Source: Nitrospirota bacterium (GTDB lineage Bacteria; Nitrospirota; UBA9217). Taken from it: 64,000 nt of DNA. Below the pieces are notes generated by a model that worked only from the letters and a program-made list of their open reading frames with translations, did not search any database and had not been told where the DNA came from. Location: assembly GCA_035516965.1 (NCBI GenBank), contig DATIZR010000120.1, forward strand, positions 967-64,966, given 5' to 3'. This document shows, piece after piece, positions 33,926 through 55,668 of the stretch (position 1 is its first letter; every line of letters starts with the position of its first letter). The translations under genes and the position numbers were made by a program.

Positions 33926-33964
33926 AGTAACCTTCCGTTCTCCGTTCCGGCGATTTGCCCGGGG

Positions 33965-35891: not shown

Positions 35892-36168
35892 AGGCTTTGC
35901 CCCTTTACGGTCTGCGCTGATGACCAAACAAGTGCGAACAGAACGGGCGAACAAAATATTGCAACAGCAGTTGGTCTCAGCGTCGAACCGCAATACCTCT
36001 CATGACAGGCCCCGCTAGGGAGCTTGCCACATAGAGATAATTAAAATATAGATATCGAGATAGGTTTTGTCAAAAAGCCGACAAAGGGAAGCGATACTAA
36101 AGACTGAGGAAATATTCTGGGAATGATTATGTGAAGGGTTATGTTAACGATAGGATGCCATGCCGTTC

Positions 36169-37602
36169 TTATTCTTTTCCCTTCGGTTCAAAATCGTCCT
36201 TGATCCTGAGGAACGTCGGGAGACTCCTGATCATCCTGAGGGCGCTGTGGGGCGACTTGAACATGAGCGGCACGAACTTGCGGGTCCAGTTCCTGCCTGT
36301 GTAGAACTGTTTCACGAACTGCTTGTATAATTCATCGAGCCGCTCCTTGGACGAAATTCCTTTCGGTACGAACACGAAATTGAGGCAGTTCATGAGGTCC
36401 CATTTCTCCTCGAAAACGCCTTCTTCCCGGATGGTCTGGTAGATCGGCGAGCCGGGGAAGGGCGTGAACTTGGTCATGTTCATGTCATCGAGCTCGAGGC
36501 CGTTGATAAAGTCCGTCGTGACCTTGACGGTCTCTTCGGTCTCGCCCGGGAGCCCCATCATGAACAGTCCCTTTGCGCGGAGCCCGGCCTTTTGAATGCG
36601 CCGGACCGTCGAGCGCATCTCGGGGAAATCTATTTTGGTCTTGTGCCTCGCGAGAATCTCCGGCGCGCCGGACTCGATGCCGACGCTGACCATCCAGCAG
36701 CCGGAGGCCTTGAGCATCCTGAGCATTTCGTCATCGGCGTGGCCCACGCGTACGGCGCAATTGAACGTCATCTTGAGCGGTTTCTCCCGCAGGAGATTGC
36801 AAAACTTCTCGATCCGTTCGCGGTTGAAGGTGAACAGGTCATCGTAGAAGAACACGTGCCGGATGTGGAACCGCTTCTTGAGGAACGCCATGTGCTCGTA
36901 AAGATACTCGGCCGAATTGAACCGGAAGCTCCTGCGGTATACGGAGCGGTCGCAGTAGGAGCACTGGTAGGGGCAGCCGCGGCTCGAGATTACCGTTGCG
37001 GTCGGCGTTTTCGGATAGTTGAACAGTGCTGCCTCGAAGCTTCCGGGAAATCCGTCGAGTTTATGGTAGGCGGGAAAAGGAAGCGAGTCAAGCTCGCAGA
37101 GATCGGTCCTGATCCCGTTGTCTCTGATCGTGCCCCCATCGCGAAAGACAAGCCCCTGGACTGTCTCCGGCTTCGCACCCGCAGCCAGCTCAGCCATGGC
37201 CTTCTCGCCTTCTCCCGTCACGAGGAGGTCAATGGCGGGAAATCGCTCCAGGATACTGCCGCGCAGCGCCGACACATGCACACCGCCAACAACGATCTTG
37301 ACACCGGGCCAGGACTCCTTGATCGCCTCTGCCTGATGGTAAGCGTTCAGGAAGCTCGACGTGACGGCCGTAAAGCCGACCATGTCGGGCCTGAAATCGG
37401 AAACGCGGGCAAGGACATCGGCCGTTCCGACGCGCGTCACCGGCCCCCGGCAGTCATGGATGGCGGTTTCGATCCCGCGCTGCTCCAGGTAGGCGGCGAT
37501 CGAGAGGAGACCGTTCGGCGCCATGCGGATGGCAGTCTCGCTCTTGTCATCACTCCCCTCGACCCAGTTCGAGCCGAAGGGGTTCACGAGCAGGACCCTC
37601 AT
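36169..37602 (-). CDS. B12-binding-domain radical SAM protein (class B)
   Basis: 477 aa. N-terminal Rossmann-like 'MRVLLVNP...NGLLSIAAYLEQRG...DMVGFTAVTS...IVVGGVH'. Radical SAM 'CPYQCSYC'. ATGA overlap with the upstream ligase gene (37599..37602). Confidence 0.8.
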   Translation of the reverse strand: MRVLLVNPFGSNWVEGSDDKSETAIRMAPNGLLSIAAYLEQRGIETAIHDCRGPVTRVGTADVLARVSDFRPDMVGFTAVTSSFLNAYHQAEAIKESWPGVKIVVGGVHVSALRGSILERFPAIDLLVTGEGEKAMAELAAGAKPETVQGLVFRDGGTIRDNGIRTDLCELDSLPFPAYHKLDGFPGSFEAALFNYPKTPTATVISSRGCPYQCSYCDRSVYRRSFRFNSAEYLYEHMAFLKKRFHIRHVFFYDDLFTFNRERIEKFCNLLREKPLKMTFNCAVRVGHADDEMLRMLKASGCWMVSVGIESGAPEILARHKTKIDFPEMRSTVRRIQKAGLRAKGLFMMGLPGETEETVKVTTDFINGLELDDMNMTKFTPFPGSPIYQTIREEGVFEEKWDLMNCLNFVFVPKGISSKERLDELYKQFVKQFYTGRNWTRKFVPLMFKSPHSALRMIRSLPTFLRIKDDFEPKGKE

Positions 37603-39053
37603 CGCTTCAACTTCCCGCTAGCGGTTTTCGGCAGCCGGTCCGTGAACTCGAAGTCCTTCGGCACCTTGTACTGGGCCAGGTGCTGATAGCAGAACTTCCG
37701 CAGGTCATTGATGTCCGGCTTCTCGGTACCATCGCGAAGCACTATCTTGGCCATCGGCAGTTGGCCGTATACAGCGTGGGGTGCGCCGTATACCAGCGAC
37801 TCCCGCACGTGCGGATGCCGGTTCAGAACGTCCTCTACTTCCTGGGCGAAGATCTTCATGCCCACGAAATTGATAACGTCCTTTTCCCTGCCGGCAATGA
37901 ACAGGTCTCCGTCGTCGTCCCTCCGGCCGAGATCGCCGGTCCTGAACCATCCGTCCGCAAGGATATCGTCCCTTCCCTGCCAGGGAGAATAGTAGGCATC
38001 GAGCATTCCCTTGCCCCTGACGAGGATCTCACCGACGCCGTTCTCGTTCCTGTTGTCGAGCTTGATCTCGAAATCCGGGAGCGGTTTACCGACGGAGCCC
38101 CTCTTTTCCCTGTTGCCGCCGAGCCTGACAAAGGGCAGGCCGACCTCGATGATGCCATAGGCCTCGGTCAGTTCGAACCCGAACTTCGCGGAGAACTCTT
38201 CTGCAACCTGTTCGGGAAGCCTGATCGCGGTCGAAACGGCCATGCGGACATTCCGGAGCGAATCCTTGGTCAAAAGACCGGAGCGGGAAAGGAGACTGTA
38301 ATGAAAGGGTGAAGCATAGATGAAGGTCCCCTTGCTCCTCGTGATGCCTTCGATCAGGGACTCCGGAAAGCGATGGCCGCACAGAACGATGGTGGCGCCC
38401 CGCCGGAGAAAGAGCAGGATGGTGACCACGAAGTGATAGCTCATGGAGAGGACCCAGAGCACCGTGTCCGCGGACGTGATCTGCAGGCCCTTGTCAGCAG
38501 CATCGGTCCGGTCGAGAATCGCCTCATGGGACAGCACTACACCCTTGCTCGTACCGGTCGTGCCGGAGCTGAAGCGGATAAAGGCCGGGTTGATGCGGAA
38601 ATATTCGGATGGCGGCCGCGCCCGCACCGTCCGTTTAACCAGGATCAATTCTTTCTGAGAGAGACCTTCAGAGGGCAGCGGTTCACCGTACCCTTCGGGT
38701 CTCAGCCGCGGCTCCGCAATGAGGTAATCCACGTCGATCCGGTCGATGACCGTCTCGATCTCATCGGCGGTCTGCTCCGGGGAAACCGGCGTAACGGCGG
38801 CGGAAAGAGACAGGATGGCGAGGCTGGCAATGATGTAGTCGATGCCGTCATCACACAGGAGCCCGACGCGGTGGGTCCGGGAGACACCCTTCCGCCGCAG
38901 CGTTTCCGCAAACATCCCGGCCGAAGCGATCAGCTGACCGTAGGTTATGCTTGAATCACCCTGGATGACTGCCGCCTTCCCGGCGAACGGCTCAGTTTCA
39001 CGCTTAATGATGTCGAAAATATTCATGAAAGGAAAATTCCGGTCGAGCAGCAC
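37599..39053 (-). CDS. AMP-dependent synthetase/ligase (acyl-CoA or acyl-ACP ligase-like)
   Basis: 484 aa. Adenylation cores 'FSSGTTGTSKGV', 'TEAYGIIE', 'GWFRTGDLG' and 'PKTASGKLKR'. Confidence 0.85.
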   Translation of the reverse strand: MLLDRNFPFMNIFDIIKRETEPFAGKAAVIQGDSSITYGQLIASAGMFAETLRRKGVSRTHRVGLLCDDGIDYIIASLAILSLSAAVTPVSPEQTADEIETVIDRIDVDYLIAEPRLRPEGYGEPLPSEGLSQKELILVKRTVRARPPSEYFRINPAFIRFSSGTTGTSKGVVLSHEAILDRTDAADKGLQITSADTVLWVLSMSYHFVVTILLFLRRGATIVLCGHRFPESLIEGITRSKGTFIYASPFHYSLLSRSGLLTKDSLRNVRMAVSTAIRLPEQVAEEFSAKFGFELTEAYGIIEVGLPFVRLGGNREKRGSVGKPLPDFEIKLDNRNENGVGEILVRGKGMLDAYYSPWQGRDDILADGWFRTGDLGRRDDDGDLFIAGREKDVINFVGMKIFAQEVEDVLNRHPHVRESLVYGAPHAVYGQLPMAKIVLRDGTEKPDINDLRKFCYQHLAQYKVPKDFEFTDRLPKTASGKLKR

Positions 39054-39138
39054 GGGAGGCGCAGAATTCGTGAAGAATCATGGCCAGAAAATACTGTGTG
39101 CCGTTGAGCCTTCCCGCGGCAACGCCGCTCTGTTCGTC

Positions 39139-40632
39139 TTACATTTTCTTGGGCAGATAGTCCTTATAGATATTCCGCATCGCGATGACGTACTTCGTGC
39201 CGTTCTTGATGCTCCGCACGATCTCACGGAAGGGAACCTTCGTCTTGTTCAGCCGGAGCGGATTGTGGCGCCAGCCGATGCTGTAGAGCCGGGCGAAGTG
39301 CGCGTAGAACTTTTTCATGTCCATCTTTGTCGGCAGCACGGTGTGCATGCAGTCGTAGTAGAGGTACGAATCGATGATGTAGTCGTTCTGGTGTTTGTGC
39401 CACAGTTCGGTTCCCGGCGAAGGGGAAAAGACCGTGAACGAAACCTCGGACGGGATGAGTTCGATAATGACCCTTTCGAGCCTCCGGAAATCCTCGACCG
39501 TGAACCCGGGATCCACCATCAGCGAGCCGTGCAGCAGGATGCCCGCCTCCCGCAGAATCTGCACTGCTTTCCTGTTCGTCTCCACCGAGGTTCGTTTTTT
39601 GTAATCCTTGAGGCGTTCCTCGTCCATGGCCTCCAGCCCTACGTAGACGATGTGGAGGCCGACCTCTTTCCAGAGCTTGAATAGTTCGGGATGATGGACG
39701 ATAGTGTCGGCGCGGGCCCAGCTCACGAACTTTTTCTTTATGCCGCGTGCTTTCAGCAGGTTCGCGATATCCGTGAGCCGCTTTGGGTTCAGGAAGGTCT
39801 CGTCGTCAACGAAGTAGATGTAATCTTCCTGGATGCCCGCGATCTCGTCCACCACGTCCTCGGGGCTTCGCTGAAGGTATTTGCCGCTCATCATGTGATG
39901 GACCACGCAGAACGCGCAACTGTAGGCGCACCCCGTCGAGGTCCTGATCGTGGCAATGGAGGGGTACATGGTCTCCAGCCGGTTGTTACCGTCCGGCGAG
40001 GTCCAGACCGAGAAATACCGCTTGCGGTCGACGAGCTCGCGACGGGGCCTTGGGATCGCTTCGACAGCCGGAAAGAGAGGCGGCTTCGCGCCCGCCTTCC
40101 GGGTGAACTCGATGTCCTGTACCGCGAGGACCGCATCTCCGTCCGCAAGGGTTTCACCTTTCTTATAGCGGTGGATAATGCCTTCGAATGCCGTGCCGCC
40201 TTCCCCGCGAACGACCAGGTCCATGTCCGAACCGGCGTAGTCCGCAGGAATGATCGTGGCGTGGATGCCGCCGGCCACGGTCAGGACGCCGGGCACCAGC
40301 ATTTTCGCCCGTTTGGCAAGGTCTTTTACGATGGCCGACTGGTTGCTGTAAGCCGTGAACCCGATGATGTCCGGCTGGAGCTCCCGCACGCGTTGTTCGA
40401 AAAAGGCCACCGGGTCTTTTTCCAGTGCGATGTCCTCGATCAGCACCCGGTCCTCCTTCGGGACCCCTCCCGCCACGATTTCGAGCTCCAGGGGCTCGAG
40501 GTGAAGGAAGTCCTGGAGCCTCCTTGCCACGAGAAGGTGCGAGTGCGGTTTGATGAGAAGGATGGTGAGGGGCTTGTTCTTTCCAAAGGCCTTCCCAGGC
40601 CTGGCGTCTACCGATGTCGTCGTCTGTGTCAT
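39139..40632 (-). CDS. B12-binding-domain radical SAM protein (class B)
   Basis: 497 aa. Contains 'ILLIKPH...DIIGFTAYSNQ...LTVAGGIHATI' followed by 'CAYSCAFC'. Confidence 0.8.
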   Translation of the reverse strand: MTQTTTSVDARPGKAFGKNKPLTILLIKPHSHLLVARRLQDFLHLEPLELEIVAGGVPKEDRVLIEDIALEKDPVAFFEQRVRELQPDIIGFTAYSNQSAIVKDLAKRAKMLVPGVLTVAGGIHATIIPADYAGSDMDLVVRGEGGTAFEGIIHRYKKGETLADGDAVLAVQDIEFTRKAGAKPPLFPAVEAIPRPRRELVDRKRYFSVWTSPDGNNRLETMYPSIATIRTSTGCAYSCAFCVVHHMMSGKYLQRSPEDVVDEIAGIQEDYIYFVDDETFLNPKRLTDIANLLKARGIKKKFVSWARADTIVHHPELFKLWKEVGLHIVYVGLEAMDEERLKDYKKRTSVETNRKAVQILREAGILLHGSLMVDPGFTVEDFRRLERVIIELIPSEVSFTVFSPSPGTELWHKHQNDYIIDSYLYYDCMHTVLPTKMDMKKFYAHFARLYSIGWRHNPLRLNKTKVPFREIVRSIKNGTKYVIAMRNIYKDYLPKKM

Positions 40633-40737: not shown

Positions 40738-41964
40738 TCATTTCCCGAAAGCCGGGTACTGACCGGACCTGACCAACTCGGCTGCGGCCCGGCCCGCCGC
40801 TTCCCCCAGGGCGATGCACGCGCCCATCACCCGAACGGAGCCGAGTGCCTGATGCGATACGGAAATGCAGCGTCCGGCAGTGAGGAGATTATGAAACCCT
40901 TTGACCTTCAGGCAGCGGAACGGTATTTCGTAGTAATCGTTCTGGGGCACGTACCGATACACGGGCCCCTTGGTCCGGTCCCAGAGCTCAATGGGCCACG
41001 AATTCTTTACAACGCCATCGGAGAACTTCTTTGCCGAAAGCACGTCCTCTTCGCTCAGGACGTACTCGCCGCGGATCCTTCTGCCCTCCCGGTCCAGAAC
41101 TCCGGAGGCTTCCCGGATCACGGCTTCGCGAAAAGAAGGGAGCCTTGCCGCGAGGATGGCCATTGCCCGGCTGACTTCCCCCCGCACCCGCGTTTCGCGA
41201 TCAGGGTGTTCCTGCTCCTCGGTGCTGAACTTGAGATAACCTTCCTCCGGAGCATCACCGGGGTGGAACGCCGTGAAACGCATGCTGGAAGAGAGCTGCC
41301 CGTGCTCCACAGCCTGTGCCAGCACGAAGGGTACCTTGATTGAAAGCGCCTGGTCCTGGCCCTGGAGGCCGCTGACCCGGACCGTGTAGCCGGCCATCTG
41401 GATCTCGTTGGGAGGCGCACAGTCGAACTCGGCCCCTGCCAGAAACCCGATCTCGCCGCTTCCTGTGCAGTCGATCACGGCCGATGTTCGGAGCGTCACG
41501 TGCATGCCCTTTTGATCGACGAGGATCCCGTCGATTGTGCCGCAGTCTGCGGTGACCGCGATCGCAACACTCTCACGAATCACCTCTATTCCCTGCTCGT
41601 TCCGGCAGAGTTCTCCCAGGACCTGTTCAAGGTCCGCTGACTCGTAGGGCAGGACAAAGACCTTCCCTGCCTTCTGGACGGTCCGCCGGGGAGACTTTTT
41701 CAAGAGCGCGGCAGCAATCTCCCGCGTTACTCCGGGGTTCAGTGTTTCCCCGGGTTCAGAACTCCCGCCGGCATAGAGCCCGCAGATCGTCCGAAGCATG
41801 CCGTGCGTACCGGTCCCGCCCAGCCGGCCCGATCTTTCAACCAGGATGACGCGGCACCCTTTCCGGGCTGCGCTGATTGCCGCTGCAACGCCGGCGACTC
41901 CCCCTCCTGCGACCAGAACTTCACCAACGATCGTTCCTTCCCTCCTGTCGATCAGAGACTGCAT
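40738..41964 (-). CDS. FAD-dependent oxidoreductase
   Basis: 408 aa. N-terminal dinucleotide fold 'VLVAGGGVAGVAAAISAARKGCRVILVER' and 'GGTGTHG'. Overlaps the upstream gene by 13 nt. Confidence 0.75.
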   Translation of the reverse strand: MQSLIDRREGTIVGEVLVAGGGVAGVAAAISAARKGCRVILVERSGRLGGTGTHGMLRTICGLYAGGSSEPGETLNPGVTREIAAALLKKSPRRTVQKAGKVFVLPYESADLEQVLGELCRNEQGIEVIRESVAIAVTADCGTIDGILVDQKGMHVTLRTSAVIDCTGSGEIGFLAGAEFDCAPPNEIQMAGYTVRVSGLQGQDQALSIKVPFVLAQAVEHGQLSSSMRFTAFHPGDAPEEGYLKFSTEEQEHPDRETRVRGEVSRAMAILAARLPSFREAVIREASGVLDREGRRIRGEYVLSEEDVLSAKKFSDGVVKNSWPIELWDRTKGPVYRYVPQNDYYEIPFRCLKVKGFHNLLTAGRCISVSHQALGSVRVMGACIALGEAAGRAAAELVRSGQYPAFGK

Positions 41965-43277
41965 CGGAGGTCACGCTCCAGGGTCTCCAGTTCTTCGTCA
42001 CCAAACAAGCCGTCGAGACAGGAGATCGTCGCGTTCAGCCGCCTGCTGTACGAATTAAAGAAGACGCCTATCCCCGGCGGCACGGGTGTTCTCGGCATGT
42101 GGAACAGGTTTACGATCTTCGCGCCAAGCAGGTCCGCGGACACAAAGGCGTCCTTGCTCACGTGCGAGAAGCAGAACGAAGCTATCTTTCCCTCCATGGG
42201 AAGATGAAAGATACGTTCCAGCAGCGGGAGGGGGGCGATTCGAGTCAGGGCGCCGGCAGCAGCGAGCTTTTCCGGGAAGCGGTTCTGCGTCTGCTCGTAA
42301 AGCTGGCTGCGGATCACGGTGATCAGCCGTTTTCGATCGCCCACGTCCTCCGGCTTTATCTGAAAGAAGAACATCGAGTTCTGGTTGAAGAACAGCTCTT
42401 CCCTGATGTCCTTTGCGCGGCGCATGTCTGTCGAAACGGGCACCACATAGGCCCCGGGAGCCGCCCCCCTGCCCTCGAACAGGCGGTGAAGACCCTGGAT
42501 CACGCGGCTGAACAGGTAGGGCATGATCATCAGGTACCCGGCCTCATCATAGGCGTTGTTCGTGATCCGCTTCGTCTCTTCCTCGTTGAAGGCGATGATC
42601 CGGAACCGGAAACCCCGGCTGCTGCTGCTCAGGCTGACCGGCACGGCACGCACCGGCTCCCCGGAGAGCGACCGGACCTTGCGGTTCACGACCTGTCCGG
42701 CGAGGAACTTGTTCTTCCAACCGGACAGGTCATAGTCCTGGATCAGCCGGATGTTGCCGACGACATCGTCCGAGTTTGCGGCGAGATAGCGCTGGAGCAG
42801 CCCCACGAAAGCCTCGGCTCCCCTCGCATCAAAGAGTCGGTGATCGAAGGTCATGGCGAAGCACTGCTCGCTCATTCCGTAGACCAGGTGGAACGCCAGG
42901 TGTTCGTCGCTTCCGGTGAATGGCGTATTGATGGATCGCGTCAGGACCGACAGGAGGTCCCGGTCGCGGGACGCTCCGTCCAGCCGGGTGACCGTGAGCG
43001 GCAGGGGATGTTCCCTGGGCCCGTTCGGTATCTTCCAGTAGGGAGTGAGCGTCCAGTGCCGGGACACGCGGCCGTTGATGACCGGGAAAAAACGGAGGAA
43101 GCGCCGCAGCGATTCGCGGACGAAGGCCTCGTCGGGCGGAGCATCGAGCATGAAGACGATCTGCGAGGAGTTCCCTGCGCAGGTGGCGTTCTTCATGATG
43201 AGGTCGATGGTCCCCATCACCCAGTCGAAGCCGCTGAGGTAGTATTTGTTCTTGACTGATAGGTACTCGGAGATCAT
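41952..43277 (-). CDS. condensation/acyltransferase-like protein (HxxxD motif)
   Basis: 441 aa. 'MTFDHRLFDARGAEAF' resembles the HHxxxDG catalytic motif of the condensation / WS-DGAT / PapA5-type acyltransferase superfamily. The assignment rests on this motif and on context only. Confidence 0.45.
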   Translation of the reverse strand: MISEYLSVKNKYYLSGFDWVMGTIDLIMKNATCAGNSSQIVFMLDAPPDEAFVRESLRRFLRFFPVINGRVSRHWTLTPYWKIPNGPREHPLPLTVTRLDGASRDRDLLSVLTRSINTPFTGSDEHLAFHLVYGMSEQCFAMTFDHRLFDARGAEAFVGLLQRYLAANSDDVVGNIRLIQDYDLSGWKNKFLAGQVVNRKVRSLSGEPVRAVPVSLSSSSRGFRFRIIAFNEEETKRITNNAYDEAGYLMIMPYLFSRVIQGLHRLFEGRGAAPGAYVVPVSTDMRRAKDIREELFFNQNSMFFFQIKPEDVGDRKRLITVIRSQLYEQTQNRFPEKLAAAGALTRIAPLPLLERIFHLPMEGKIASFCFSHVSKDAFVSADLLGAKIVNLFHMPRTPVPPGIGVFFNSYSRRLNATISCLDGLFGDEELETLERDLRCSL

Positions 43278-43278
43278 G

Positions 43279-43548
43279 CTACAGGTTCTTGTGGATGAAG
43301 GACGCCAGGGACCGGATTGTCTCGAAGTCTTGTCGTGTAAGGTCCGAGTGGATCAGTTGGAGTTTAAAGGTCTTCTCGATGAATACCAGGATCTCGACGA
43401 GGCCGAGTGAGTCGATCCCGAGTTCGTGGAACGGCTGGTCGCCTCCGAGAGATGCCTTGTCAGCCGCCAGTATGGCGGCTACGCCTTCCGTCAGCGTGCT
43501 TTCGATTTCCTGCACCGTGAACTTCTTGCCCGTTTCCTGAACCGCCAT
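43279..43548 (-). CDS. acyl carrier protein
   Basis: ORF trimmed to the ATG at 43548 ('MAVQETGKKF'). Phosphopantetheine site 'LGIDSLGLVEI'. Confidence 0.8.
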   Translation of the reverse strand: MAVQETGKKFTVQEIESTLTEGVAAILAADKASLGGDQPFHELGIDSLGLVEILVFIEKTFKLQLIHSDLTRQDFETIRSLASFIHKNL

Positions 43549-43658
43549 ATCCCGAAAAAATCCTTTCAGCTGGAGTGGTCTGCCTTGGCGCTTGAAGATC
43601 GATGGATGGATCGAGGGACCGGCCCGCTCGCGCAGCAGCATGGTACGTGATGATTAGA

Positions 43659-44717
43659 CTACGGTTTCATCAAATGAATCGTGCTTGATTCGTTTGCGCA
43701 ATTATACCGGATGCATCGCATGAAATCAACAGAAGAATCAGCGTGTTCCTTCACAACAGGAAGGTTTTGCGCTCCGTCCAGAACGGGGTTTGCATAACAG
43801 AAACCGGCCTTGAGCATCAGGGCACCTGCAGCCATGGAGAATGCCGTCCCCGTCATCATGCTTCCGTAGAGCGGCGAGTAAGCGGCGATCCGGGCCCCTG
43901 GACTCGTTTCAAAGGCCTGCCACGTTACCTCTGACGTCATCCCGTCAATGTCGAGAATATTGAGACCTGAACCCTGTGGTGTGTTGGCGCTGGTTCCAAA
44001 CTGTACGCCGGACACCCTGCAGTAAAACCTCTCATCCTCCTTGTTGCCGAGAAGGAAAAAAGCGGCCCCTTCACCGGGAACTGCTCCGGGTGACTTCTGG
44101 AAAGGCCTGATCTTCCCGTCGGCGGCCAGGGCAAGTCTGGAGTCCGCGATATACCCCAGAACGTCTCCGAATTGATCGATTGCGCCGACAAGAACGTGGT
44201 CCAGTCGCCCCTCATGAAGCCATGCGTCGGCAAGCTGCAGCGCCGACTGGAACGAAAAGAAGAACTGCGTCACGGTCAGCGTCGGGCCCTGTATCCCGAG
44301 TGCCGTAGAAATATAAGATGCCGCCGCGTTGTGCACCGAATTGGAAAAGGCCGTTGGGGAGACCGCCGCCTCGCCGAAGTCGAGGATGCCGTCCAGAAAT
44401 TCAAAGGTCGTTCCATGGGCCCCCAAAGCCGTGGCCACGATCACGCCCAGCCTCCTGACCTCCTCAGGACGAAGTCCGCTGTCCGTCACCGCGTCCGTTG
44501 CCGCGAGCACCGCCATCTTGCTCAGCTTGTCCGCACGCCTCATTTTTTTGAGAACGCTCTTGTCCTGCACGTGCTCCAGGTCCACGGTATGGACCGGCAC
44601 CTGCCTGTCCTTGATCGTCAAGCGCGCGGGTTCGCGCCATCCTTCGAGCAGGGCCTGTTGGAATGCATGGATCCCCCTGCCCCGCGAACAGAGAAGGCCA
44701 ATGCCCTGTACGTTCAT
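43659..44717 (-). CDS. beta-ketoacyl synthase-like protein lacking the active-site Cys (chain-length-factor-like partner)
   Basis: 352 aa with a thiolase-fold-like N-terminus 'MNVQGIGLLCSRGRG'. It has 'TVTQFFFSFQSAL' where KS enzymes carry 'xACSSG'. ATGA overlap with the upstream complete KS (44714..44717). Confidence 0.7.
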   Translation of the reverse strand: MNVQGIGLLCSRGRGIHAFQQALLEGWREPARLTIKDRQVPVHTVDLEHVQDKSVLKKMRRADKLSKMAVLAATDAVTDSGLRPEEVRRLGVIVATALGAHGTTFEFLDGILDFGEAAVSPTAFSNSVHNAAASYISTALGIQGPTLTVTQFFFSFQSALQLADAWLHEGRLDHVLVGAIDQFGDVLGYIADSRLALAADGKIRPFQKSPGAVPGEGAAFFLLGNKEDERFYCRVSGVQFGTSANTPQGSGLNILDIDGMTSEVTWQAFETSPGARIAAYSPLYGSMMTGTAFSMAAGALMLKAGFCYANPVLDGAQNLPVVKEHADSSVDFMRCIRYNCANESSTIHLMKP

Positions 44718-45895
44718 GGCGCTGACCTCCGTCCCATCACGATGGCAGCGTTGTTGCCCCCGAAGGCGAGCGACGTGGAAACGGCGTATTTGCCCGCGAT
44801 GCGTGTTATTTCACGGACCGGCGCAAGGGGAATGTTCGGGTCCTGGTTCACGAACCCAGGGCTTGCCGGGATCCATCCCGCTCTCAGCCCCAGGGCGGTG
44901 AACACAGCCTCCAACCCGCCTGCTGCGCCGAGCGTGTGCCCTGTGAACCCCTTTGTCGAGAGCATGGCGAGCCCGGGACCGAACATCCTGGCAAGGAGCT
45001 TCCCCTCGGCCTGATCGTTATCCGGGGTCGCCGTCCCATGGGCGTTCACGAAGCTGACTGTCTCCGGCCCGACGTCCGCCTGTCGCAAGGCAGCGACCAG
45101 CGACGCCTCAAGGCCGACTCCCTCGGGATGGGGCGCCGTGAGATGGTAGGCGTCGGCGCATGCCCCAAACCCCGCAAGAAACAGGTCTGTCGAGACGCGG
45201 CGCCGTTTGGCGAACTCCCGCCGCTCGAGAACGACCACGCCCGCCCCTTCACCAAGATTCAGCCCCTTCCGGTCCCGGTCAAAGGGCGCGCACAGCTCCT
45301 TGCTCACGATGCCGAGCGATCCGAAACCGCAGTACGGGATGCGCGACAGCTCGTCCGCGCCGCCGGCTATGGCAATGTCGCACATGCCGCTCCGGAGCCA
45401 TGACGAAGCCGCGCCGATCGCATCGGTGCCCGATGAACAGGCATTCACGACCGTGAGGCAGGGCCCGTTTGCCTTGACGGAGCGTGCGACGTACTCGGCC
45501 AGGTTCCCCTTCAAGTAACGGTCCACGGGCTCCATGGGCGCCGAGCCCGTCTCGCGATAGGAGCGATAGAATTCCAGATCGTTCAACTGGCTGGCCACGG
45601 TTGTGCCGAGACAGACGCCGACTCGATGCTTCGAAAGATCATGGCCGAGGCCGGACTCGCGCAATGCCTCATCCACGGCAACAAGGGCCAGGCTTATCGT
45701 CCTCAGTCCCTTCCGGCGAAATGCCTCGGGAATGCTTTTCACTTCGAACACCGGATACTCAAGCCGCGTTTCGAAGAGCGTTACAGGCCCGCCGTTTCGC
45801 CGGCCGTCCTTGAAGCACGTCAGCGTCTCAGGCACCGAAGAGCCGGCCGCGGAGATCGCGCCTAGTCCGGTGATAAGGATATCGTTGTTCTGCAT
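44714..45895 (-). CDS. beta-ketoacyl-ACP synthase (FabF-like)
   Basis: Start set at the ATG at 45895 ('MQNNDILITGLG'); the ORF could extend to 45955. Cys-His-His triad contexts 'NACSSGTDAIG', 'NAHGTATPDND' and 'FTGHTLGAAG'. Confidence 0.85.
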   Translation of the reverse strand: MQNNDILITGLGAISAAGSSVPETLTCFKDGRRNGGPVTLFETRLEYPVFEVKSIPEAFRRKGLRTISLALVAVDEALRESGLGHDLSKHRVGVCLGTTVASQLNDLEFYRSYRETGSAPMEPVDRYLKGNLAEYVARSVKANGPCLTVVNACSSGTDAIGAASSWLRSGMCDIAIAGGADELSRIPYCGFGSLGIVSKELCAPFDRDRKGLNLGEGAGVVVLERREFAKRRRVSTDLFLAGFGACADAYHLTAPHPEGVGLEASLVAALRQADVGPETVSFVNAHGTATPDNDQAEGKLLARMFGPGLAMLSTKGFTGHTLGAAGGLEAVFTALGLRAGWIPASPGFVNQDPNIPLAPVREITRIAGKYAVSTSLAFGGNNAAIVMGRRSAP

Positions 45896-45954
45896 AGGCC
45901 GGTTATTGTACACTCCCCTTTGTTCTTTGTCCATGGGTTTGGCCATCAAGGCCA

Positions 45955-47718
45955 TCAGAAGCGCGGACAGGTCCTGCAGGCCTCGGGAGGGTCATCACCT
46001 GTCATCCGCTGACGATGGTCTCTGAACACATCTCCATTCCATATCGCGGAGAGGGGCTGGGCAAGGAGATTTCCCGCCTTGATGCCGGGTTGGCAATCGC
46101 ACAGCGTTGCCTCGCCCTGGACATTGATGGGGATGGTCTGCCACGGCGAAGCGCACCAGGAGCGGCGTGATGACCGCATGTACAGCTGATCAGGAGGAAG
46201 CAGCAGGAACTTATTGTACCTCTTCCAGAGACCGAACTCCTCCAGCCCCCTCACGGAAAGAACGGGCAGGTTCTTCCGGAAAGCGCTGGATACGGCTGTC
46301 CGCAACATCGAGGCTGCATGTACGCTGCCGTTCTTCCAGAGCGTCCGCCCGATGTTTTCCCCGAAATTCAGGTCCGTCAGCATCATCACGTGAACGCCCA
46401 GGCCGGAGACGAGTTCCATGAGCAGGTCGAGCGAATCGATGGTTTCCGTCGAGACCGCGGAAAAGACGGCAATCGATATTTCCCTCGTGGAACGCGAGAT
46501 ATCGACGAACCGCCTTATGTTAGCAACCACTCGGGCAAGGTCCGTTCCGGGCCGTACCGCTGCGGCAAGGTCCTGAGTACCCGCGTCGATGCTGAATGCG
46601 ATCGATTCGAGACCCGCGTCAAGAAGACTGCGAGAGAGCCCTTCGTCCAGGAGCATCGCGTTCGTCACCAGCGCTGTTCTTCTTCCCCGGGATGATGCCT
46701 CCCGGACAAGATCCGCCACCTGCGGATGCATCAGCGTTTCGCCGAGGCCAACCAGTGTTACCCGATACGCATGCGGAAGCAGGTCGAGTATGGCGGAGAA
46801 GACTCCTTTCGGCATGTCCCTGGGATCGACGCCCCTCAGGGTGCGGGCGCAATGGACGCAGCGCATGGTGCACCGTGTGGTGATCTCGATGTTAGCGATA
46901 ACCGGCTCAGTCGGAACGATCGGACTGAGCCGGGACTGCTGACCGGCCGCGCTTTGTCCGCTGGGGCTCAGGGCAAGATGATGCGCGGAAAACGGCGACA
47001 CGTCAAGAAAACGGCCCGCTTCGGGTTCGACGGACAGGATGCGTTCTAGTACGGCCCTATCCTCGCGCGACGGCACCCGCACGACATCATCGATGGCCCT
47101 CGCAACAAGATCAACAGCAAGCGTGCAGTTCGGACCCTGCAAGACATCGTGTCCCGCGCCGGGGACGGTCGCCGCACGAACGGGTCCCCGGAAGTAGTCA
47201 CGCGACCAGTCTGCTGTATCGGCGCCAGGGACGAGCGCATCCCGCTCTCCCTGCAGGACAAATACCGGGAATGAACCCTTGAACCGGGATTTCCCGACTT
47301 TCTTGATCATTGAGACCATGGCCGCAACCGAGGTGAACGAAATCTGGCTCTTGCCTTTGCGGTGGTCCGACCATCGAGCGAAAGAGTTTGTGTCGATTTT
47401 TTTTGGAACGGAAGCAAGCACGAGCAGCAAGGGTTCTGCGCCCGTCTCCGCCAGCGCGTTCAGGGCAATGATGCCGCCGGTCGAGTGTCCGAAGAGCACG
47501 ATGTCCAGGCCCCGCTGCTGGGCGTCTCTGACTGCTTCGACCACGGACCCGGTAAAGGACCTCATATCGAAGGCGGGCACCCCGCGCGATGCATGACCCG
47601 GAAGCCGCACGGTTCGCACGGAATCCAGTCCTTTGCGCCCGCGAAGCGCATCGGCAAGGAGGGTAAGGTCGTCCGGGGACCCCGAGTAACCGTGGACAAG
47701 AATAACAGTGGCGGGCAC
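45955..47718 (-). CDS. fusion protein: alpha/beta hydrolase (N) + radical SAM/SPASM-like domain (C)
   Basis: 587 aa. N-terminal 'ILVHGYSGSPDD' with nucleophile elbow 'GHSTGG'. Residues ~283-290 'CTMRCVHC' (46849..46872). C-terminal Cys-rich 'CASPW...LCDCQP...EACRTCPRF'. Confidence 0.75.
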   Translation of the reverse strand: MPATVILVHGYSGSPDDLTLLADALRGRKGLDSVRTVRLPGHASRGVPAFDMRSFTGSVVEAVRDAQQRGLDIVLFGHSTGGIIALNALAETGAEPLLLVLASVPKKIDTNSFARWSDHRKGKSQISFTSVAAMVSMIKKVGKSRFKGSFPVFVLQGERDALVPGADTADWSRDYFRGPVRAATVPGAGHDVLQGPNCTLAVDLVARAIDDVVRVPSREDRAVLERILSVEPEAGRFLDVSPFSAHHLALSPSGQSAAGQQSRLSPIVPTEPVIANIEITTRCTMRCVHCARTLRGVDPRDMPKGVFSAILDLLPHAYRVTLVGLGETLMHPQVADLVREASSRGRRTALVTNAMLLDEGLSRSLLDAGLESIAFSIDAGTQDLAAAVRPGTDLARVVANIRRFVDISRSTREISIAVFSAVSTETIDSLDLLMELVSGLGVHVMMLTDLNFGENIGRTLWKNGSVHAASMLRTAVSSAFRKNLPVLSVRGLEEFGLWKRYNKFLLLPPDQLYMRSSRRSWCASPWQTIPINVQGEATLCDCQPGIKAGNLLAQPLSAIWNGDVFRDHRQRMTGDDPPEACRTCPRF

Positions 47719-50421: not shown

Positions 50422-50606
50422 TTCTCGAACGCCTACATGGACTTCCCTTGAAGACGCTGATCGTGGTCGACCTTCTTGACCGGAGCATTCGCACAGGACA
50501 GCGAGCCCCGGCCCCGGGAGCGGCGCCACGAATCAGCTGAACGGGGACCCCTGTGTACATACCCCGGCGCGCTTTCCGGATCGTCGCACCCTTCTCCCGG
50601 AGCTCT

Positions 50607-51869: not shown

Positions 51870-53046
51870 AGACGTACCTTGCCTTCCGGATCGCAAGCGC
51901 GGCAAAGAAGACGATCGCGCCGGTCAGGAGGGCGAGGAGCGGCGCGATGACCAGCGAACCGAGAAGCCATTCATAGAGCCGTGCGGAGAACTGCTCGAAC
52001 ACTGTCTGGAACGAGAGATCGGTGAGCCATTGCCCGTGGCGCATATAGTATCCGACCTCGATGCAGAGCGCCGGCACCACGGGCGGCATCGCGATATGCT
52101 GGACGTTCAGGGACACGATCTTGTTCAGGTTCAGCCGCAGGGACACGTAGAGGATGACGAGCGAATGCACGAACAGAAGCGGCAGGACCGCCAGAAAGAC
52201 GCCAACTGCCGCGGACAGGGCAAGCCCCTCCGGAGTGGCGTTCTCCCTGATCAGCATCTTCAGCGCCTTCCCCGGGTGTCGCAGGAGGGAGAGGTTGAGT
52301 GCCGTTGCGGGCTTCACCAGTTTGTGATGCGGCACCGGCAGCAGTCGCCTGCCTACCAACATGGAATGGATGCCCGTGAGGCGAAGATTGTCCAGGAACG
52401 GCCGGAAGCTCGATACGCGCTCCCCGGGCTTCGGATAGCATACGGAGACGGGAACCGTTTTCAGCGTCAGTCCCGCCCAAGACGCCTTGGCAAGGACCTC
52501 GGCCTCGAAGTCGTAGCGGCTGCCCTTGAAGGTGAGCTGGTTCAGATAGCGGACCGGATAGGCGCGGAAGCCGCTCTGGCAATCATCAACCGTCACCCCG
52601 GTCTCCACCTTGAGCCAGAAGTTCGCGAAGGCCCTGCCGAACCTGCTCGAAGCCGGCACGTTCCCGGTATTGAAGTCCCGGGATCCGATGATGACGCTCC
52701 TGTCGTCCTCTTCGATTACCGGGAAAAACCGCCGGACATCGCTCGGGTCGTGCTGCCCATCAGCGTCGATGGTGATCATGAAGACGCCGCCGCGCTCCTC
52801 GATAGAGCGCGAGGCCGTGAGGATCGCCTGTCCTTTGCCGAGGTTCTTTTCGTGCTTCAGCATCACAACAGCAAGGCCGCCCAGCAGTGATGAGACGTCG
52901 GCATCCGTGCTGCCGTCGTCAACCACGATCACGTTTGAGAGCATGGCGAGGCATTGTTCCACGACGGTCCTGATGGTGGCCGCATTGTTATAGACCGGGA
53001 CCGCGATCCAGACGCGGCCGTCCGTGGCGTGCTTACTTAGGTGCAT
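51847..53046 (-). CDS. glycosyltransferase family 2 fused to a C-terminal polytopic (DUF2062-like) membrane domain
   Basis: ORF trimmed to the ATG at 53046 ('MHLSKHATDGRVWIAVPVYNN'). Contains 'VVDDGSTD' and 'TIDADGQHDP'. The C-terminal ~130 aa is hydrophobic. Confidence 0.75.
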   Translation of the reverse strand: MHLSKHATDGRVWIAVPVYNNAATIRTVVEQCLAMLSNVIVVDDGSTDADVSSLLGGLAVVMLKHEKNLGKGQAILTASRSIEERGGVFMITIDADGQHDPSDVRRFFPVIEEDDRSVIIGSRDFNTGNVPASSRFGRAFANFWLKVETGVTVDDCQSGFRAYPVRYLNQLTFKGSRYDFEAEVLAKASWAGLTLKTVPVSVCYPKPGERVSSFRPFLDNLRLTGIHSMLVGRRLLPVPHHKLVKPATALNLSLLRHPGKALKMLIRENATPEGLALSAAVGVFLAVLPLLFVHSLVILYVSLRLNLNKIVSLNVQHIAMPPVVPALCIEVGYYMRHGQWLTDLSFQTVFEQFSARLYEWLLGSLVIAPLLALLTGAIVFFAALAIRKARYVYVAGKGN

Positions 53047-54400
53047 GCCGCGCCCTCTCCTTGTTCTTCCCGGGAAGGAGCAGGTCCCACATCGGGCCCG
53101 TGTACCCGAGCTTGTGCAGGATCTGCAGGCTGTTGTCGTACGCGTCAGGCGGGAACACGCAGTGCCGCACACCTTCGAATGCCCTTGTCAGCCGTTCCTC
53201 AAGCTGCTTTTTGTCCACAGCGGGAGACAGATAGTAGACCGGATGGAGCATTCCTTCATCGGGCTTGATGAGGTTCTCCTTGACCGCGAGTCGGGCGAGC
53301 GGCGTGTCCGGGAGGATCCGGATCCCCATGAAGATGAACACGACGCATTTCTGCAGGGACAGGATGTTCCGAATGCCCTCCTCCACGGTCTCGGGCGTCT
53401 CGCCGGGCCCCCCGAACATAAAAAAGTGGGAAGTGGAGATTCCGTGGCGCGCGAACAGGTCATTGCATTCGATGACGTCCCGGAAGGTGAAGTTCTTGCC
53501 CATCTTCTTGAGCGTGGTGTCGCACGCGGCGTCGGCGCCTACTTCTGCAGCCGCGAAACCGGTCTTTTTCATGCGCTCCACGATCTCGTCGGTCAGCCCC
53601 CGGGGCTTGAAAAAACCCGTCCAGGGAATGGAGACGCTCCTGCGCTGCATCTCGTCGATCACCTCAAGGTAGGCACCCTCGTCATCATTGAAGACCGAGT
53701 CGACGAAGAAGAGGTATTTGGTCTTGAACCTGTCCCTGAGCAGCTCGATGTCGTCGACCACGGCCCGGGGCTCGCGCCGCCTGAGCTGCGAGCCTTCGAG
53801 CACGGGATAGGTGCAGTACACGCACTTATATGCGCAGCCGCGCTTCGTCTGAACGGACGCGATGTTGCCGCTGTGCAGATAGAACTCGAGCAGCCGTTCG
53901 TCGTACAGCGCCGACCCGATCCTGTCGCCGGCGATCCGCGCCGAGGGCCCGATGATAGGGTCGCGGGGATAGACACCCCGTGCCGCATTGTCCGCGAACT
54001 CGACGGCCAGGACCTCTCCCTCGCCGACGATGCCGTAATCCGCACCGGTCTCCTGCAGAATCAGCTCGGGGACCAGCGAGAAGCCGGCGCCGCCGAGCAA
54101 CACCTTTGCGGTCGATACCTTTTTCACCGTGGACACGATGTTCTTCACGTTCTGGATATAGTACTGCTCGCTCACGAGGTTCACATTGTCGATGTTGCGG
54201 ACCGAGATGCCGACGAGATCGGGCGCGTACTGCTTTACCTCGCTCCCGATGGCTTCGAGGGACGTCTTCTGCTGCAGAAAATCCGCCTGCAGGACCTCGT
54301 GGCCGGCATGGGTGAGGGCCGCCGCGATCATGCTCACGCCAAGCGGGTAGATCGGATAGGGAGACGTGGTCACATTCGCCGATATAAGAAGGATCTTCAT
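53033..54400 (-). CDS. B12-binding-domain radical SAM protein (lipid-cluster type)
   Basis: ORF trimmed to the ATG at 54400 ('MKILLISANVTTSPYPIYPLGVSMIAAALTHAGHEV'), which forms ATGA with the upstream stop. Radical SAM 'CAYKCVYC'. Confidence 0.8.
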   Translation of the reverse strand: MKILLISANVTTSPYPIYPLGVSMIAAALTHAGHEVLQADFLQQKTSLEAIGSEVKQYAPDLVGISVRNIDNVNLVSEQYYIQNVKNIVSTVKKVSTAKVLLGGAGFSLVPELILQETGADYGIVGEGEVLAVEFADNAARGVYPRDPIIGPSARIAGDRIGSALYDERLLEFYLHSGNIASVQTKRGCAYKCVYCTYPVLEGSQLRRREPRAVVDDIELLRDRFKTKYLFFVDSVFNDDEGAYLEVIDEMQRRSVSIPWTGFFKPRGLTDEIVERMKKTGFAAAEVGADAACDTTLKKMGKNFTFRDVIECNDLFARHGISTSHFFMFGGPGETPETVEEGIRNILSLQKCVVFIFMGIRILPDTPLARLAVKENLIKPDEGMLHPVYYLSPAVDKKQLEERLTRAFEGVRHCVFPPDAYDNSLQILHKLGYTGPMWDLLLPGKNKERARHAPK

Positions 54401-55668
54401 CGCGAGGTCCCCGTTACCATGTCCTTTTGCCACTTCCGCCGCCGCAGACGCGCCCCCTGGTAGGTGCCGTCCGCCTTTTCCTTCTCGATGACCTTCAGGA
54501 ACAGCTTCGCCATCCTGAGGTTCTGGCTGCTTTCCTGGTAAAAGGTGTCCCAGGCGTAGTAATAGAGGTCCTGAAGCCTGGACGGCGTCATCCTGGCCGG
54601 CTGATAGACCACCTTTCCTCCGGTGTAGTTCCGCCAGTCGTTCGACAGGATCCTTCCCTCCTTCGTCAGCGTTTCCCGGATCGGTGTGTGGGGGAACGGG
54701 GTCAGGATCGTGAACTCGGCAAGGTCGAGGTTGATCTCGAGCAGGAAATCCACAAGCCGCCTGATGTAGTCCTCGTCCTGTTCGTCGGTCCCCAGGATGA
54801 TCGTGCCCTCGACGCCGATGCCCCGCTCCTGCAGCCGCTTGACGCGGTTCCGGATGTAATCCGACGTGTCGAAGATCGCCTGGTACACGTACCAGCAGCC
54901 TGCCTGCGCCGCGAGATCCAGGATCTCGTCATTGTCCTTGATGGGATGGCAGACCCACTTCTTCTTGAGCGGGATCAGCGCCCGGAAGAGGTCTTTCTCC
55001 CACTGGTCGTTCTGCGCCATGGAGTTGTCCACGAAGAAGAGCCGGTTGTTGTCGATGGCCGCGACCTCGCGCACGACGTCGTCGATCGGCCTCGGACGGA
55101 ATTCACGTCCGCCGAGGAACGGCGTGCAGCACGGGAAACAGTTGAACCGGCAGCCGCGCGAGGCATGGATGAGGTCCACCATCTGGACGCCCCGGTAGTT
55201 GTACCGGTCGCGTTTGAGGATGTTCCGCCGGGCAGGGCCGACCAGCTTCATGTCCGGAAAATTCCACTGGTAGTCGTAGACCTTCCTGAGTTGTCCCCTC
55301 TTCAGGTCATCGATGACCTGGCCGAAACGGCCCTCTGCCTCGCCCAGGAACACGGCATCGGCGTGCGTCTTTGTCTCCTCGGCATGCAGCATGGTCCCGA
55401 TGCCGCCGAAGATGACCGGAACGCCTCTGCTCCGATAGCGGTCGGCGATCTCCCACCCCCTGGGGATCTGGCAAGTAAGCATGCAGGAGATGGCGACGAA
55501 GTCGACGGGTTCGTCGAAATCGATGTTTTCCACGTGCTCGTCGATAAAGCCCAGTTCGCAGTCGTCCGGCACAGTCGACGCAAAACAGATCGGCCCGTGC
55601 GGGGGGAGGTGAAATTCCGTCTGCCGTTCCAGTTTCGGCCATTGGGGGTATATCAGTTTAATCTTCAC
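54397..55668 (-). CDS. B12-binding-domain radical SAM protein
   Basis: 423 aa with a GTG start (GTGA overlap with the upstream gene). Contains 'VDFVAISCMLTCQ...VPVIFGGIG' followed by 'CRFNCFPC'. Confidence 0.75.
   Translation of the reverse strand: MKIKLIYPQWPKLERQTEFHLPPHGPICFASTVPDDCELGFIDEHVENIDFDEPVDFVAISCMLTCQIPRGWEIADRYRSRGVPVIFGGIGTMLHAEETKTHADAVFLGEAEGRFGQVIDDLKRGQLRKVYDYQWNFPDMKLVGPARRNILKRDRYNYRGVQMVDLIHASRGCRFNCFPCCTPFLGGREFRPRPIDDVVREVAAIDNNRLFFVDNSMAQNDQWEKDLFRALIPLKKKWVCHPIKDNDEILDLAAQAGCWYVYQAIFDTSDYIRNRVKRLQERGIGVEGTIILGTDEQDEDYIRRLVDFLLEINLDLAEFTILTPFPHTPIRETLTKEGRILSNDWRNYTGGKVVYQPARMTPSRLQDLYYYAWDTFYQESSQNLRMAKLFLKVIEKEKADGTYQGARLRRRKWQKDMVTGTSR

Follow-up and report, generated by a model that had tools for sequence, protein, structure and literature searches.

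A recurrent ligase–carrier protein–acyltransferase module with lineage-variable cobalamin-type radical SAM genes in a lipid cluster of an uncultured Nitrospirota bacterium

Gene content of the locus

We analysed 64,000 nucleotides (the window) of contig DATIZR010000120.1 (positions 967 to 64,966 of the forward strand; assembly GCA_035516965.1) from an uncultured Nitrospirota bacterium, in which two genes for cobalamin (B12)-type radical S-adenosylmethionine (rSAM) proteins, rsamB and rsamA, bracket a gene for a class I adenylate-forming (ANL) ligase. This trio lies inside a ladderane-like/aryl-polyene-like lipid cluster, where we read it as the tail of a conserved eight-gene module that also encodes a ketosynthase (KS2), a chain-length factor (CLF2), an acyl carrier protein (ACP2), a predicted acyltransferase (C441) and a flavoenzyme (FADox). 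The module, in gene order, comprises:

44714..45955, minus strand: KS2, FabF-type ketosynthase with active-site Cys, HGTAT and GHTLGAAG
43659..44717, minus strand: CLF2, ketosynthase-like protein of chain-length-factor type, Cys/His/His lost
43279..43641, minus strand: ACP2, PP-binding protein with GIDSL, the module's own carrier protein
41952..43277, minus strand: C441, 441 aa, predicted stand-alone condensation-domain-fold acyltransferase with an invariant DHxxxDARG
40738..41964, minus strand: FADox, FAD-dependent oxidoreductase, PF12831 over its full length (266.7 bits), core module member
39139..40632, minus strand: rsamB, cobalamin-type radical SAM protein, 497 aa, CAYSCAFC at residue 235
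37599..39026, minus strand: ligase, class I adenylate-forming (ANL) enzyme, 475 aa; the longest open reading frame (ORF) starts from a GTG at 39053 and gives 484 aa
36169..37602, minus strand: rsamA, cobalamin-type radical SAM protein, 477 aa, CPYQCSYC at residue 210

An earlier, sequence-only reading of the window had reported the three trio genes on the minus strand with the motifs quoted here, and all of these are seen in the ORF translations. It had also described the last two genes as coupled, and the TGA of the ligase does overlap the ATG of rsamA by 4 nt (ATGA). For the ligase, the ATG at 39026 is the most likely start and not the GTG at 39053, because its closest homologues, about 120 proteins, are 474–484 aa long and share the N-terminus MNIF. 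Likewise, ACP2 probably starts near 43548, because its orthologues are 80 aa long. Module genes overlap at four junctions in the window (by 1, 4, 13 and 4 nt), and gaps of 105 nt and ~112 nt flank rsamB. KS2 retains the Cys/His/His residues that CLF2 is without; its best match in the PDB (9s5h, a 2026 FabF-type entry) scores barely above ordinary FabF, and this search gave no link specific to a known cluster.

Conservation of the module across genomes

With a profile built from 12 ligase homologues we searched the GTDB species genomes and retrieved 206 relatives. The best 80 of these, 55–76% identical to the ligase, were taken as loci, and the counts below therefore describe the orthologous group (at least 55% identity) as distinct from distant ANL relatives. 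Twenty-eight cluster proteins of the window were compared with the 80 loci by tblastn, counting only loci with enough flank. All 80 loci are metagenome-derived and belong to Nitrospirota/Thermodesulfovibrionia, Geobacterales, Desulfobacterales and a few other groups. The closest genomes are metagenome-assembled genomes of Nitrospirota, with a ligase 76% identical to that of the window.

In 53 of 55 loci the genes upstream of the ligase include FADox and C441. The possibility, raised by the sequence-only reading, that orthologues of the trio commonly stand alone and away from ketosynthase and carrier protein genes does not fit the genomes, in which KS2, CLF2 and the ACP are found upstream of the ligase in 43 of 48 species loci. 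Nor is the arrangement peculiar to this cluster: four such radical SAM genes had been called unusual for any fatty-acid-like locus, and yet relatives matching the ligase profile occur in at least 206 GTDB species with a recurring architecture. The module extends to another phylum, as a contig of Candidatus Omnitrophota (L085, 55-6829) carries, in this order, C441, FADox, an rsamA-like gene, a second B12-rSAM gene and the ligase. A JGI contig has the order KS-CLF-ACP-C441-FADox-ligase-rsamA with consecutive 4-nt overlaps.

The radical SAM genes vary. Both are present in 25 of 55 loci, rsamB only in 22, rsamA only in 3 and neither in 5. The gene directly upstream of the ligase is rsamB in 46 of 71 loci and FADox in 17 of the same 71; directly downstream stands rsamA (30 of 67) or an rsamB-type gene (6 of 67). 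Among Nitrospirota loci the arrangement of the window is common, with rsamB before the ligase in 32 of 40 and rsamA after it in 27 of 39. Where rsamA follows the ligase, the 4-nt overlap is kept in 23 of 31 loci, and rsamA orthologues are seen only within the module, even where its gene order is permuted. In five Geobacterales-type loci (L017, L019, L023, L024, L026) a class I SAM methyltransferase of 241 aa, which fits no curated family, takes the place of rsamA and is also coupled to the ligase by 4 nt (for example L024, 11428-12153). A YceI-like gene follows this methyltransferase in L024 and L026.

The constant partners of the ligase are thus ACP2, C441 and FADox, and rsamA and rsamB are lineage-variable accessory tailoring genes, because both are present in only 25 of 55 loci and neither in 5, against 53 of 55 for FADox with C441. 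As to the co-occurrence of ligase and rSAM genes, what holds is the synteny of ligase orthologues with ACP2-C441-FADox; the presence of the rSAM genes is variable. These distributions also bear on whether the trio might be a unit of its own, a neighbour of the lipid cluster by position alone, for instance one for salvage or degradation of an aromatic or dicarboxylic acid. The gaps on either side of rsamB, a few detached ligase orthologues (L026, L045, L076) and the action of the nearest solved ligase relatives on small acids would suit such a unit. It is nevertheless very improbable, and largely refuted already by the ACP2-C441-FADox synteny in 53 of 55 loci, which spans Nitrospirota, Geobacterales, Desulfobacterales and Omnitrophota, and by genomes in which FADox, ligase and rsamA are all 4-nt-coupled.

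The ligase is a generic adenylate-forming enzyme

The ligase has the complete ANL motifs (A3 SSGTTGTSKGV, GWFRTGDLG and A10 PKTASGKLKR), the family signatures WVLSMS[YF]H and EAYGIIEV, and the Pfam domains AMP-binding (PF00501, 184.8 bits) and AMP-binding_C (PF13193, 77.1 bits). Its best NCBIfam model, PRK06187, gives 258.8 bits against a cut-off of 476. Grouping with housekeeping FadD, which would have spoken against a role in this cluster, is rejected by the E. coli-type equivalog NF006523 (174 against 884 bits). Fatty acyl-AMP ligases (FAALs) are defined by a specific insertion in the N-terminal domain (PMC11837247); the ligase aligns end-to-end with the 503-aa MatB with no insertion of more than 4 residues in the printed alignment, and none of its 60 best PDB matches is an FAAL structure. 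An amino-acid adenylation domain of a non-ribosomal peptide synthetase (NRPS) is rejected as well, since the A4 region (SMSYHFVVT) has His and not Asp and the AA-adenyl-dom model scores 157 against 317 bits. This His aligns with the His-containing motif of MatB, as in acyl/aryl-CoA ligases.

By these comparisons the ligase is classed as a generic ANL enzyme, neither FadD nor FAAL nor amino-acid adenylation domain. The nearest solved relatives are MatB (malonyl-), oxalyl- and benzoate-CoA ligases and MenE (E ~1e-40, ~27% identity), and the substrates of solved relatives are diverse, including malonate, oxalate, benzoate, o-succinylbenzoate and fatty acids. The acid used is probably not an amino acid, and a long fatty acid activated in the FAAL manner appears improbable.

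C441 and the destination of the activated acid

Neither Pfam nor NCBIfam has a model that matches C441, and in the PDB a profile search touches nothing but the DHRLLDG catalytic motif of E2 succinyltransferases, at 14 bits. Nearly all of its 595 detectable homologues are labelled 'hypothetical'; PF00668 is on record for two of them only, and a few JGI labels read 'NRPS condensation-like'. Across a 26-sequence alignment D145-H146-x3-D150-A-R-G153 is invariant. The AlphaFold model (pLDDT 84, pTM 0.86) has as its top Foldseek match the CDA lipo-initiation C1 domain (E 3.5e-18), and also matches NRPS condensation domains, TRI3, a BAHD transferase and WS/DGAT (TM 0.55-0.69 overall; 0.62-0.69 for NRPS condensation domains, TRI3 and WS/DGAT). 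Because of these matches we assign C441, from its predicted fold, as a stand-alone condensation-fold acyltransferase. For FADox, the PDB matches only the dinucleotide-binding (FAD-binding) N-terminus, with no solved relative beyond it.

These partners bear on whether the ligase loads a carrier protein or makes an acyl-CoA. It could be an acyl-CoA synthetase for a released or imported acid, with C441 using the acyl-CoA in the manner of WS/DGAT, PapA5 or BAHD enzymes and ACP2 serving only KS2/CLF2. The nearest solved relatives are indeed all CoA ligases, the FAAL-specific insertion is missing, a 4HBT thioesterase encoded upstream could release a free acid, and CoA-dependent acyltransferases are among the structural matches of C441. 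Identity to the CoA ligases is only ~27%, however, and ANL enzymes other than FAALs do load carriers: ApeH, the benzoyl-ACP synthetase of aryl polyene (APE) clusters, is a precedent for ANL-to-ACP loading (PMC12624758). Moreover, a dedicated ACP accompanies the ligase in ~90% of loci, and the best structural matches of C441 are carrier-protein-dependent NRPS condensation domains. We therefore favour loading of ACP2 and consider the acyl-CoA synthetase rather unlikely.

The cobalamin-type radical SAM proteins

Two further genes in the upstream half of the cluster encode related proteins:

53033..54433, minus strand: rsamC, TIGR04072 'lipid biosynthesis B12-binding/radical SAM protein', a ladderane-type marker (624.1 bits against 360)
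54397..55668, minus strand: rsamD, fourth B12-like radical SAM protein, CRFNCFPC, domain scores just under the Pfam cut-offs

By their CxxxCxxC/Radical_SAM signature and an N-terminal Rossmann-type B12-binding domain, rsamA and rsamB are assigned to class B radical SAM; the two proteins score 79.3/88.2 and 59.1/77.8 bits for B12-binding/Radical_SAM (Pfam gathering scores 32.1 for PF02310 and 29.5 for PF04055). The cluster had been credited with four class-B-type genes. Four do have a B12-type domain, although the fourth lies below the Pfam cut-offs, and the total of radical SAM genes is seven: four B12-type, two SPASM-type and one HemN-type, with the CxxxCxxC motif in 7 of 7 proteins. The description of rsamA and rsamB as a pair of paralogs does not hold. 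In all-vs-all BLASTP they share 24% identity over 394 residues, the four B12-rSAM proteins are 23-27% identical over partial lengths, and their best curated models differ. Recent paralogy is ruled out at these identities, and the four are distinct subfamilies.

Only rsamC reaches a curated NCBIfam cut-off, the scores of the others being far below those of any family. The best models for rsamB are HpnR (236.5 bits) and, next, BchE (136.6), with HpnJ at 78.7; those for rsamA are HpnJ (185.5), ApyD (159), BchE (146.5) and P-methylases (~142), with HpnR at 72.7. No model exceeds 56 bits for rsamD. Neither rsamB nor rsamA is HpnR (TIGR04367, cut-off 650 bits). HpnJ (TIGR03471) and BchE (TIGR02026) are rejected for both proteins at cut-offs of 577.6 and 481.35, so that the JGI 'BchE' labels on orthologues are over-annotations. 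TIGR04072 is rejected too, with 104.3 bits for rsamA and 46.8 for rsamB against 360.

The HpnR-like character of rsamB is, by sequence comparison, a resemblance and not membership, and the protein falls in a large uncharacterised clade. A HMMER scan of a 1.84-billion-protein representative library yields 361 representatives of this clade at E<=1e-30. The nearest foreign clusters are 46%, 38% and 37% identical to rsamB, and 0 of its 100 nearest 50%-cluster representatives match any NCBIfam family at E<=1e-120. Some rsamB-like proteins are fusions (P0367, P0467 and P0493, 31-37% identical to rsamB), their partners being nitronate monooxygenase (NMO) plus FabD-helical-insert domains, a class I/II aminotransferase and a class I methyltransferase.

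The AlphaFold model of rsamA (pLDDT 75.5) matches every solved cobalamin rSAM at TM 0.56-0.68 (TsrM, AprD4, MgmA, OxsB, TokK and CysS), over the full length for TsrM, TokK, CysS, OxsB and MgmA. TokK and CysS, at TM 0.65-0.67, were both crystallised with pantetheinylated substrates. Cobalamin binding by rsamA and rsamB is predicted and is not to be assumed from the fold, because AprD4, a top match of rsamA, is the sole cobalamin-type match with an entry title that names no cobalamin.

Most cobalamin rSAMs are annotated as methylases, and others carry out ring contractions, oxidations and cyclisations (PMC13459092). For the two trio proteins we consider C-methylation the most likely reaction, because methylases predominate in this way, because HpnR, a lipid C-methylase, is the best model of rsamB by 100 bits, because a conventional methyltransferase takes the coupled position of rsamA in five loci, because the fusion partners of rsamB relatives include a class I methyltransferase and NMO plus FabD-type domains, and because TokK and CysS, model matches of rsamA, use pantetheinylated substrates. 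Alternatively, the two enzymes could perform radical carbon-skeleton chemistry (ring formation, C-C coupling, rearrangement or dehydration) and lead to a carbocyclic or cross-linked lipid, comparable with what has been proposed for the B12-rSAM protein encoded in the ladderane cluster of anammox bacteria and for Grs, the ring synthases of archaea. The top curated and solved matches of rsamA include the non-methylases HpnJ, BchE, AprD4 and OxsB, the cluster holds a 'ladderane-type' TIGR04072 protein among its seven radical SAM genes, and reactions of this kind are among those documented for cobalamin rSAMs (PMC13459092). The predominance of methylase annotations, the clear preference of rsamB for HpnR and the class I methyltransferase in the rsamA position of five loci all count against it, as does the restriction of reported ladderanes to anammox Planctomycetota (PMC9902471). 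We judge carbon-skeleton chemistry to be unlikely on balance and retain C-methylation in the scheme below.

A proposed load–tailor–extend–transfer scheme

What the analysis shows is which genes are present, how their synteny is kept, the fold of C441 and which protein families are excluded; on this footing we propose a scheme in which the trio is the tail of the module KS2, CLF2, ACP2, C441, FADox, rsamB, ligase and rsamA; each of its chemical steps is one that we infer. The ligase would first adenylate a carboxylic acid and thioesterify it onto ACP2, CoA being the less likely acceptor. The cobalamin rSAMs would then tailor the pantetheine-tethered acyl group, most likely by C-methylation at an unactivated carbon, and FADox would supply or remove a double bond. 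KS2/CLF2 would lengthen the chain with malonyl units. Finally, C441 would transfer the completed acyl group to an acceptor with a hydroxyl or an amine, such as a compound made by the upstream half of the cluster. The obligate core would consist of the ligase, ACP2, C441 and the flavoenzyme, and its adenylation–thiolation–condensation part may be viewed as a dissociated unit set on a type II KS/CLF. As a whole, we give this reading an even chance of being correct.

The sequence-only reading had suggested that a free acid is re-activated for modification by the two rSAM enzymes. Thioester activation fits the 23 of 31 coupled loci and the pantetheinylated substrates of TokK and CysS; the ligase does not mainly serve the rSAM enzymes, given that both accompany it in only 25 of 55 loci and neither does in 5. 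What appears to survive is the order of events, an acid that would be tethered first and then modified.

Several observations weigh against the scheme. All 80 of 80 loci come from metagenome assemblies of uncultured organisms, and no RNA run holds the ligase gene, whose matches are wetland and peat DNA metagenomes only; in such metagenomes the source sequence recurs. The sequence of the ligase does not separate ACP loading from CoA ligation, and the CoA-dependent TRI3, WS/DGAT and BAHD enzymes score similarly to the other structural neighbours of C441. Both rSAM proteins score far under every curated family cut-off. Methylation is not the sole option, because the nearest models of rsamA span HpnJ (ring contraction), BchE (cyclase), P-methylases and AprD4 (dehydratase), and the methyltransferase that stands in place of rsamA may differ from it in job. 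In L026, L045, L076 and possibly L049, ligase orthologues are detached from KS/ACP genes.

The surrounding cluster and its downstream boundary

When the neighbouring ORFs are scanned with Pfam and NCBIfam, the trio falls in one long, tightly packed co-directional array, with all genes of the trio region on the minus strand. In the direction of transcription, from the window edge at 64000, the array runs through a PaaK-type ligase fragment, an rSAM/SPASM–ApeP-like fusion, LolA, MMPL, an unassigned 235-aa protein, an ApeI-like dehydratase, a 4HBT thioesterase, KS1 and a truncated KS partner. It continues with rsamD, rsamC, a glycosyltransferase (GT2)-DUF2062 protein, an LpxL-type acyltransferase, a 92-aa ACP, a HemN/HutW-like rSAM, a GT1-like protein and an alpha/beta-hydrolase–rSAM/SPASM fusion, and ends with the eight module genes (KS2, CLF2, ACP2, C441, the PF12831 FAD oxidoreductase, rsamB, ligase, rsamA). 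Further features are:

62094-63584, minus strand: radical SAM + SPASM protein with a C-terminal ApeP-like dehydratase, 496 aa; ApeP-like Pfam match of 23.4 bits, below the gathering score
50607-50885, minus strand: 92-aa ACP, LGLDSLDAVEIV, between the LpxL-type acyltransferase and the HemN-like gene
49030-50529, minus strand: HemN/HutW(ChuW)-like class C radical SAM protein; HutW model 175.9 bits, below its cut-off
45955-47718, minus strand: fusion of an N-terminal alpha/beta-hydrolase/thioesterase with radical SAM + SPASM, a single 587-aa ORF
36045..36073, minus strand: sigma-70-like site, TTGACA-17-TATATT, 11/12; a consensus match only

The 92-aa ACP lies under a 100-aa ORF threshold and is easily missed; it brings the carrier proteins of the cluster to two. 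Orthologues of the 587-aa fusion shift together with the GT1-like gene to other module positions (L007, L014, L015), and orthologues of the HemN-like gene occur in several related loci. Jaw5, too, would be a HemN-type enzyme. This radical SAM enzyme cyclopropanates the jawsamycin polyketide lipid (PMC13459092).

The sequence-only reading had placed the trio at the 3' end of the cluster, and here the boundary agrees with it: the 175-nt gap that follows rsamA holds the best sigma-70-like site of the region. We looked for an intrinsic terminator after rsamA and found none. At the predicted site the cluster would end and the DUF5752/TreT genes would begin. Beyond the gap lie trehalose-related genes in the order DUF5752, TreT, TreZ-like and TreY-like; DUF5752 overlaps the start of the TreT-type trehalose synthase gene (33965-35993, minus strand), and this pairing is also conserved in locus L006. 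The synteny ligase-rsamA-DUF5752-TreT is common to Nitrospirae bacterium GWC2_57_9. We considered TreT/TreY/TreZ as suppliers of the acceptor and set the idea aside, as only one close relative (L006) shares the neighbourhood, which we treat as lineage synteny. An 897-aa ORF on the plus strand (32771-35464), antisense to TreZ/TreT/DUF5752, has a shadow-frame pattern of G+C content at first and third codon positions (GC1 0.75, GC3 0.59) and is, by its composition, a high-G+C artefact and not a gene.

Significance

In the literature that we searched, the ligase-ACP-C441-FADox(-rSAM) module is not described. Cluster typing would assign the locus to the 'ladderane' or 'arylpolyene' clusters, and the module is an uncharacterised variant of such ladderane-like/aryl-polyene-like lipid clusters. 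'Ladderane-like' clusters of non-anammox anaerobes have been detected and found expressed in nature, with their function unassigned (PMC9902471). Radical SAM modification of lipids is known almost only for isoprenoid lipids according to a 2026 review, and for ketoacyl lipids the only proposed cases are Jaw5 and the still-unsolved ladderanes (PMC13459092). We tentatively suggest that the module could make an undescribed class of acyl lipid, with a carrier-built chain multiply methylated or carbocyclised by cobalamin rSAMs under anoxic conditions, although this is somewhat doubtful. If true, B12-rSAM chemistry would be demonstrated for the first time on a lipid of the fatty-acid (ketoacyl) type, and the module would become a candidate biological source for alkyl biomarkers, branched or cyclic, that are still orphans in anoxic sediments and wetlands.

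The analysis defines a compact, recurrent sub-module of ligase, ACP, condensation-fold acyltransferase and flavoenzyme, to which two B12-rSAMs may be added. Present in at least 206 species of anaerobes, it is a well-delimited and widespread target for work on radical SAM chemistry with fatty-acid-type lipids, and its natural variants (with rsamA, without rsamA, or with a class I methyltransferase instead) suit biochemical and comparative-lipidomic comparison.

Comparison with known systems

The APE set comprises ApeH, which loads the ApeE ACP, the ApeO/ApeC KS-CLF, ApeI/P, ApeK, ApeD, ApeJ and MMPL/LolA-type export. The upstream half of the cluster resembles it, with a PaaK-type ligase fragment, ApeP-like and ApeI-like dehydratase domains (Pfam matches below the gathering scores), a 4HBT thioesterase, a KS and its truncated partner, GT2-DUF2062, an LpxL-type acyltransferase, MMPL and LolA. 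A full Ape set also includes a ketoreductase (ApeQ) and tandem ACPs; no ketoreductase is seen between 27 and 64 kb, the annotated part of the window, whose edge at 64000 cuts the cluster. The module repeats the logic of ligase, dedicated ACP and KS/CLF. Its ligase, however, is a second ANL enzyme with AMP-binding and AMP-binding_C domains and not the PaaK-type C-terminal domain, and the APE set as described has no radical SAM, condensation-fold acyltransferase or PF12831 flavoenzyme.

The KS2/CLF2 pattern matches both the APE KS/CLF pairs and the FabF heterodimer of anammox bacteria. The candidate ladderane cluster of the latter has amxACP, amxFabZ, a FabF2/FabFmut KS-CLF heterodimer, a phytoene-dehydrogenase-like enzyme and a B12 radical SAM protein (PMC10139942), and thus shares with our locus the pairing of an active KS with a catalytically dead one, along with a dedicated ACP, a flavoenzyme and one or more cobalamin-type rSAMs. 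In addition, rsamC is a true TIGR04072 member, and the upstream half resembles the syntenic Kuenenia/Desulfotalea clusters in its phenylacetyl-CoA-ligase-like (PCL-type) enzyme, MMPL-like protein, rSAMs and glycosyltransferase (Rattray et al. 2009, PMC2649909). Unlike the anammox cluster, the module lacks FabZ, has a PF12831 flavoenzyme and not one of the phytoene-desaturase type, adds an ANL ligase and a condensation-fold acyltransferase, and contains rSAM proteins, rsamA and rsamB, that are not TIGR04072 members. Its hosts, Nitrospirota and Desulfobacterota, are not known as ladderane makers (PMC9902471).

Among cobalamin rSAM systems, the closest parallels are TokK/ThnK and CysS, methylases that act on pantetheine- or carrier-tethered substrates, and the lipid C-methylase HpnR. 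The pairing of an adenylating enzyme with a B12-rSAM fits an order of tethering first and then methylating. Sequence identity is only 17-22%, with scores far under the family cut-offs, and TokK and CysS are ~150-200 residues longer; methylation by members of the rsamA and rsamB clades is a prediction.

The mycobacterial FadD-PKS-Pap-MmpL lipid assembly lines draw on the same cast of proteins at the level of families: an ANL ligase, a KS with its carrier, a stand-alone condensation-fold acyltransferase, MMPL and a LolA-like carrier. They differ in that the ligase here is without the FAAL insertion and works beside a type II KS/CLF rather than a type I polyketide synthase (PKS), and any branching in the lipid of this cluster would arise from rSAM chemistry and not from methylmalonyl units.

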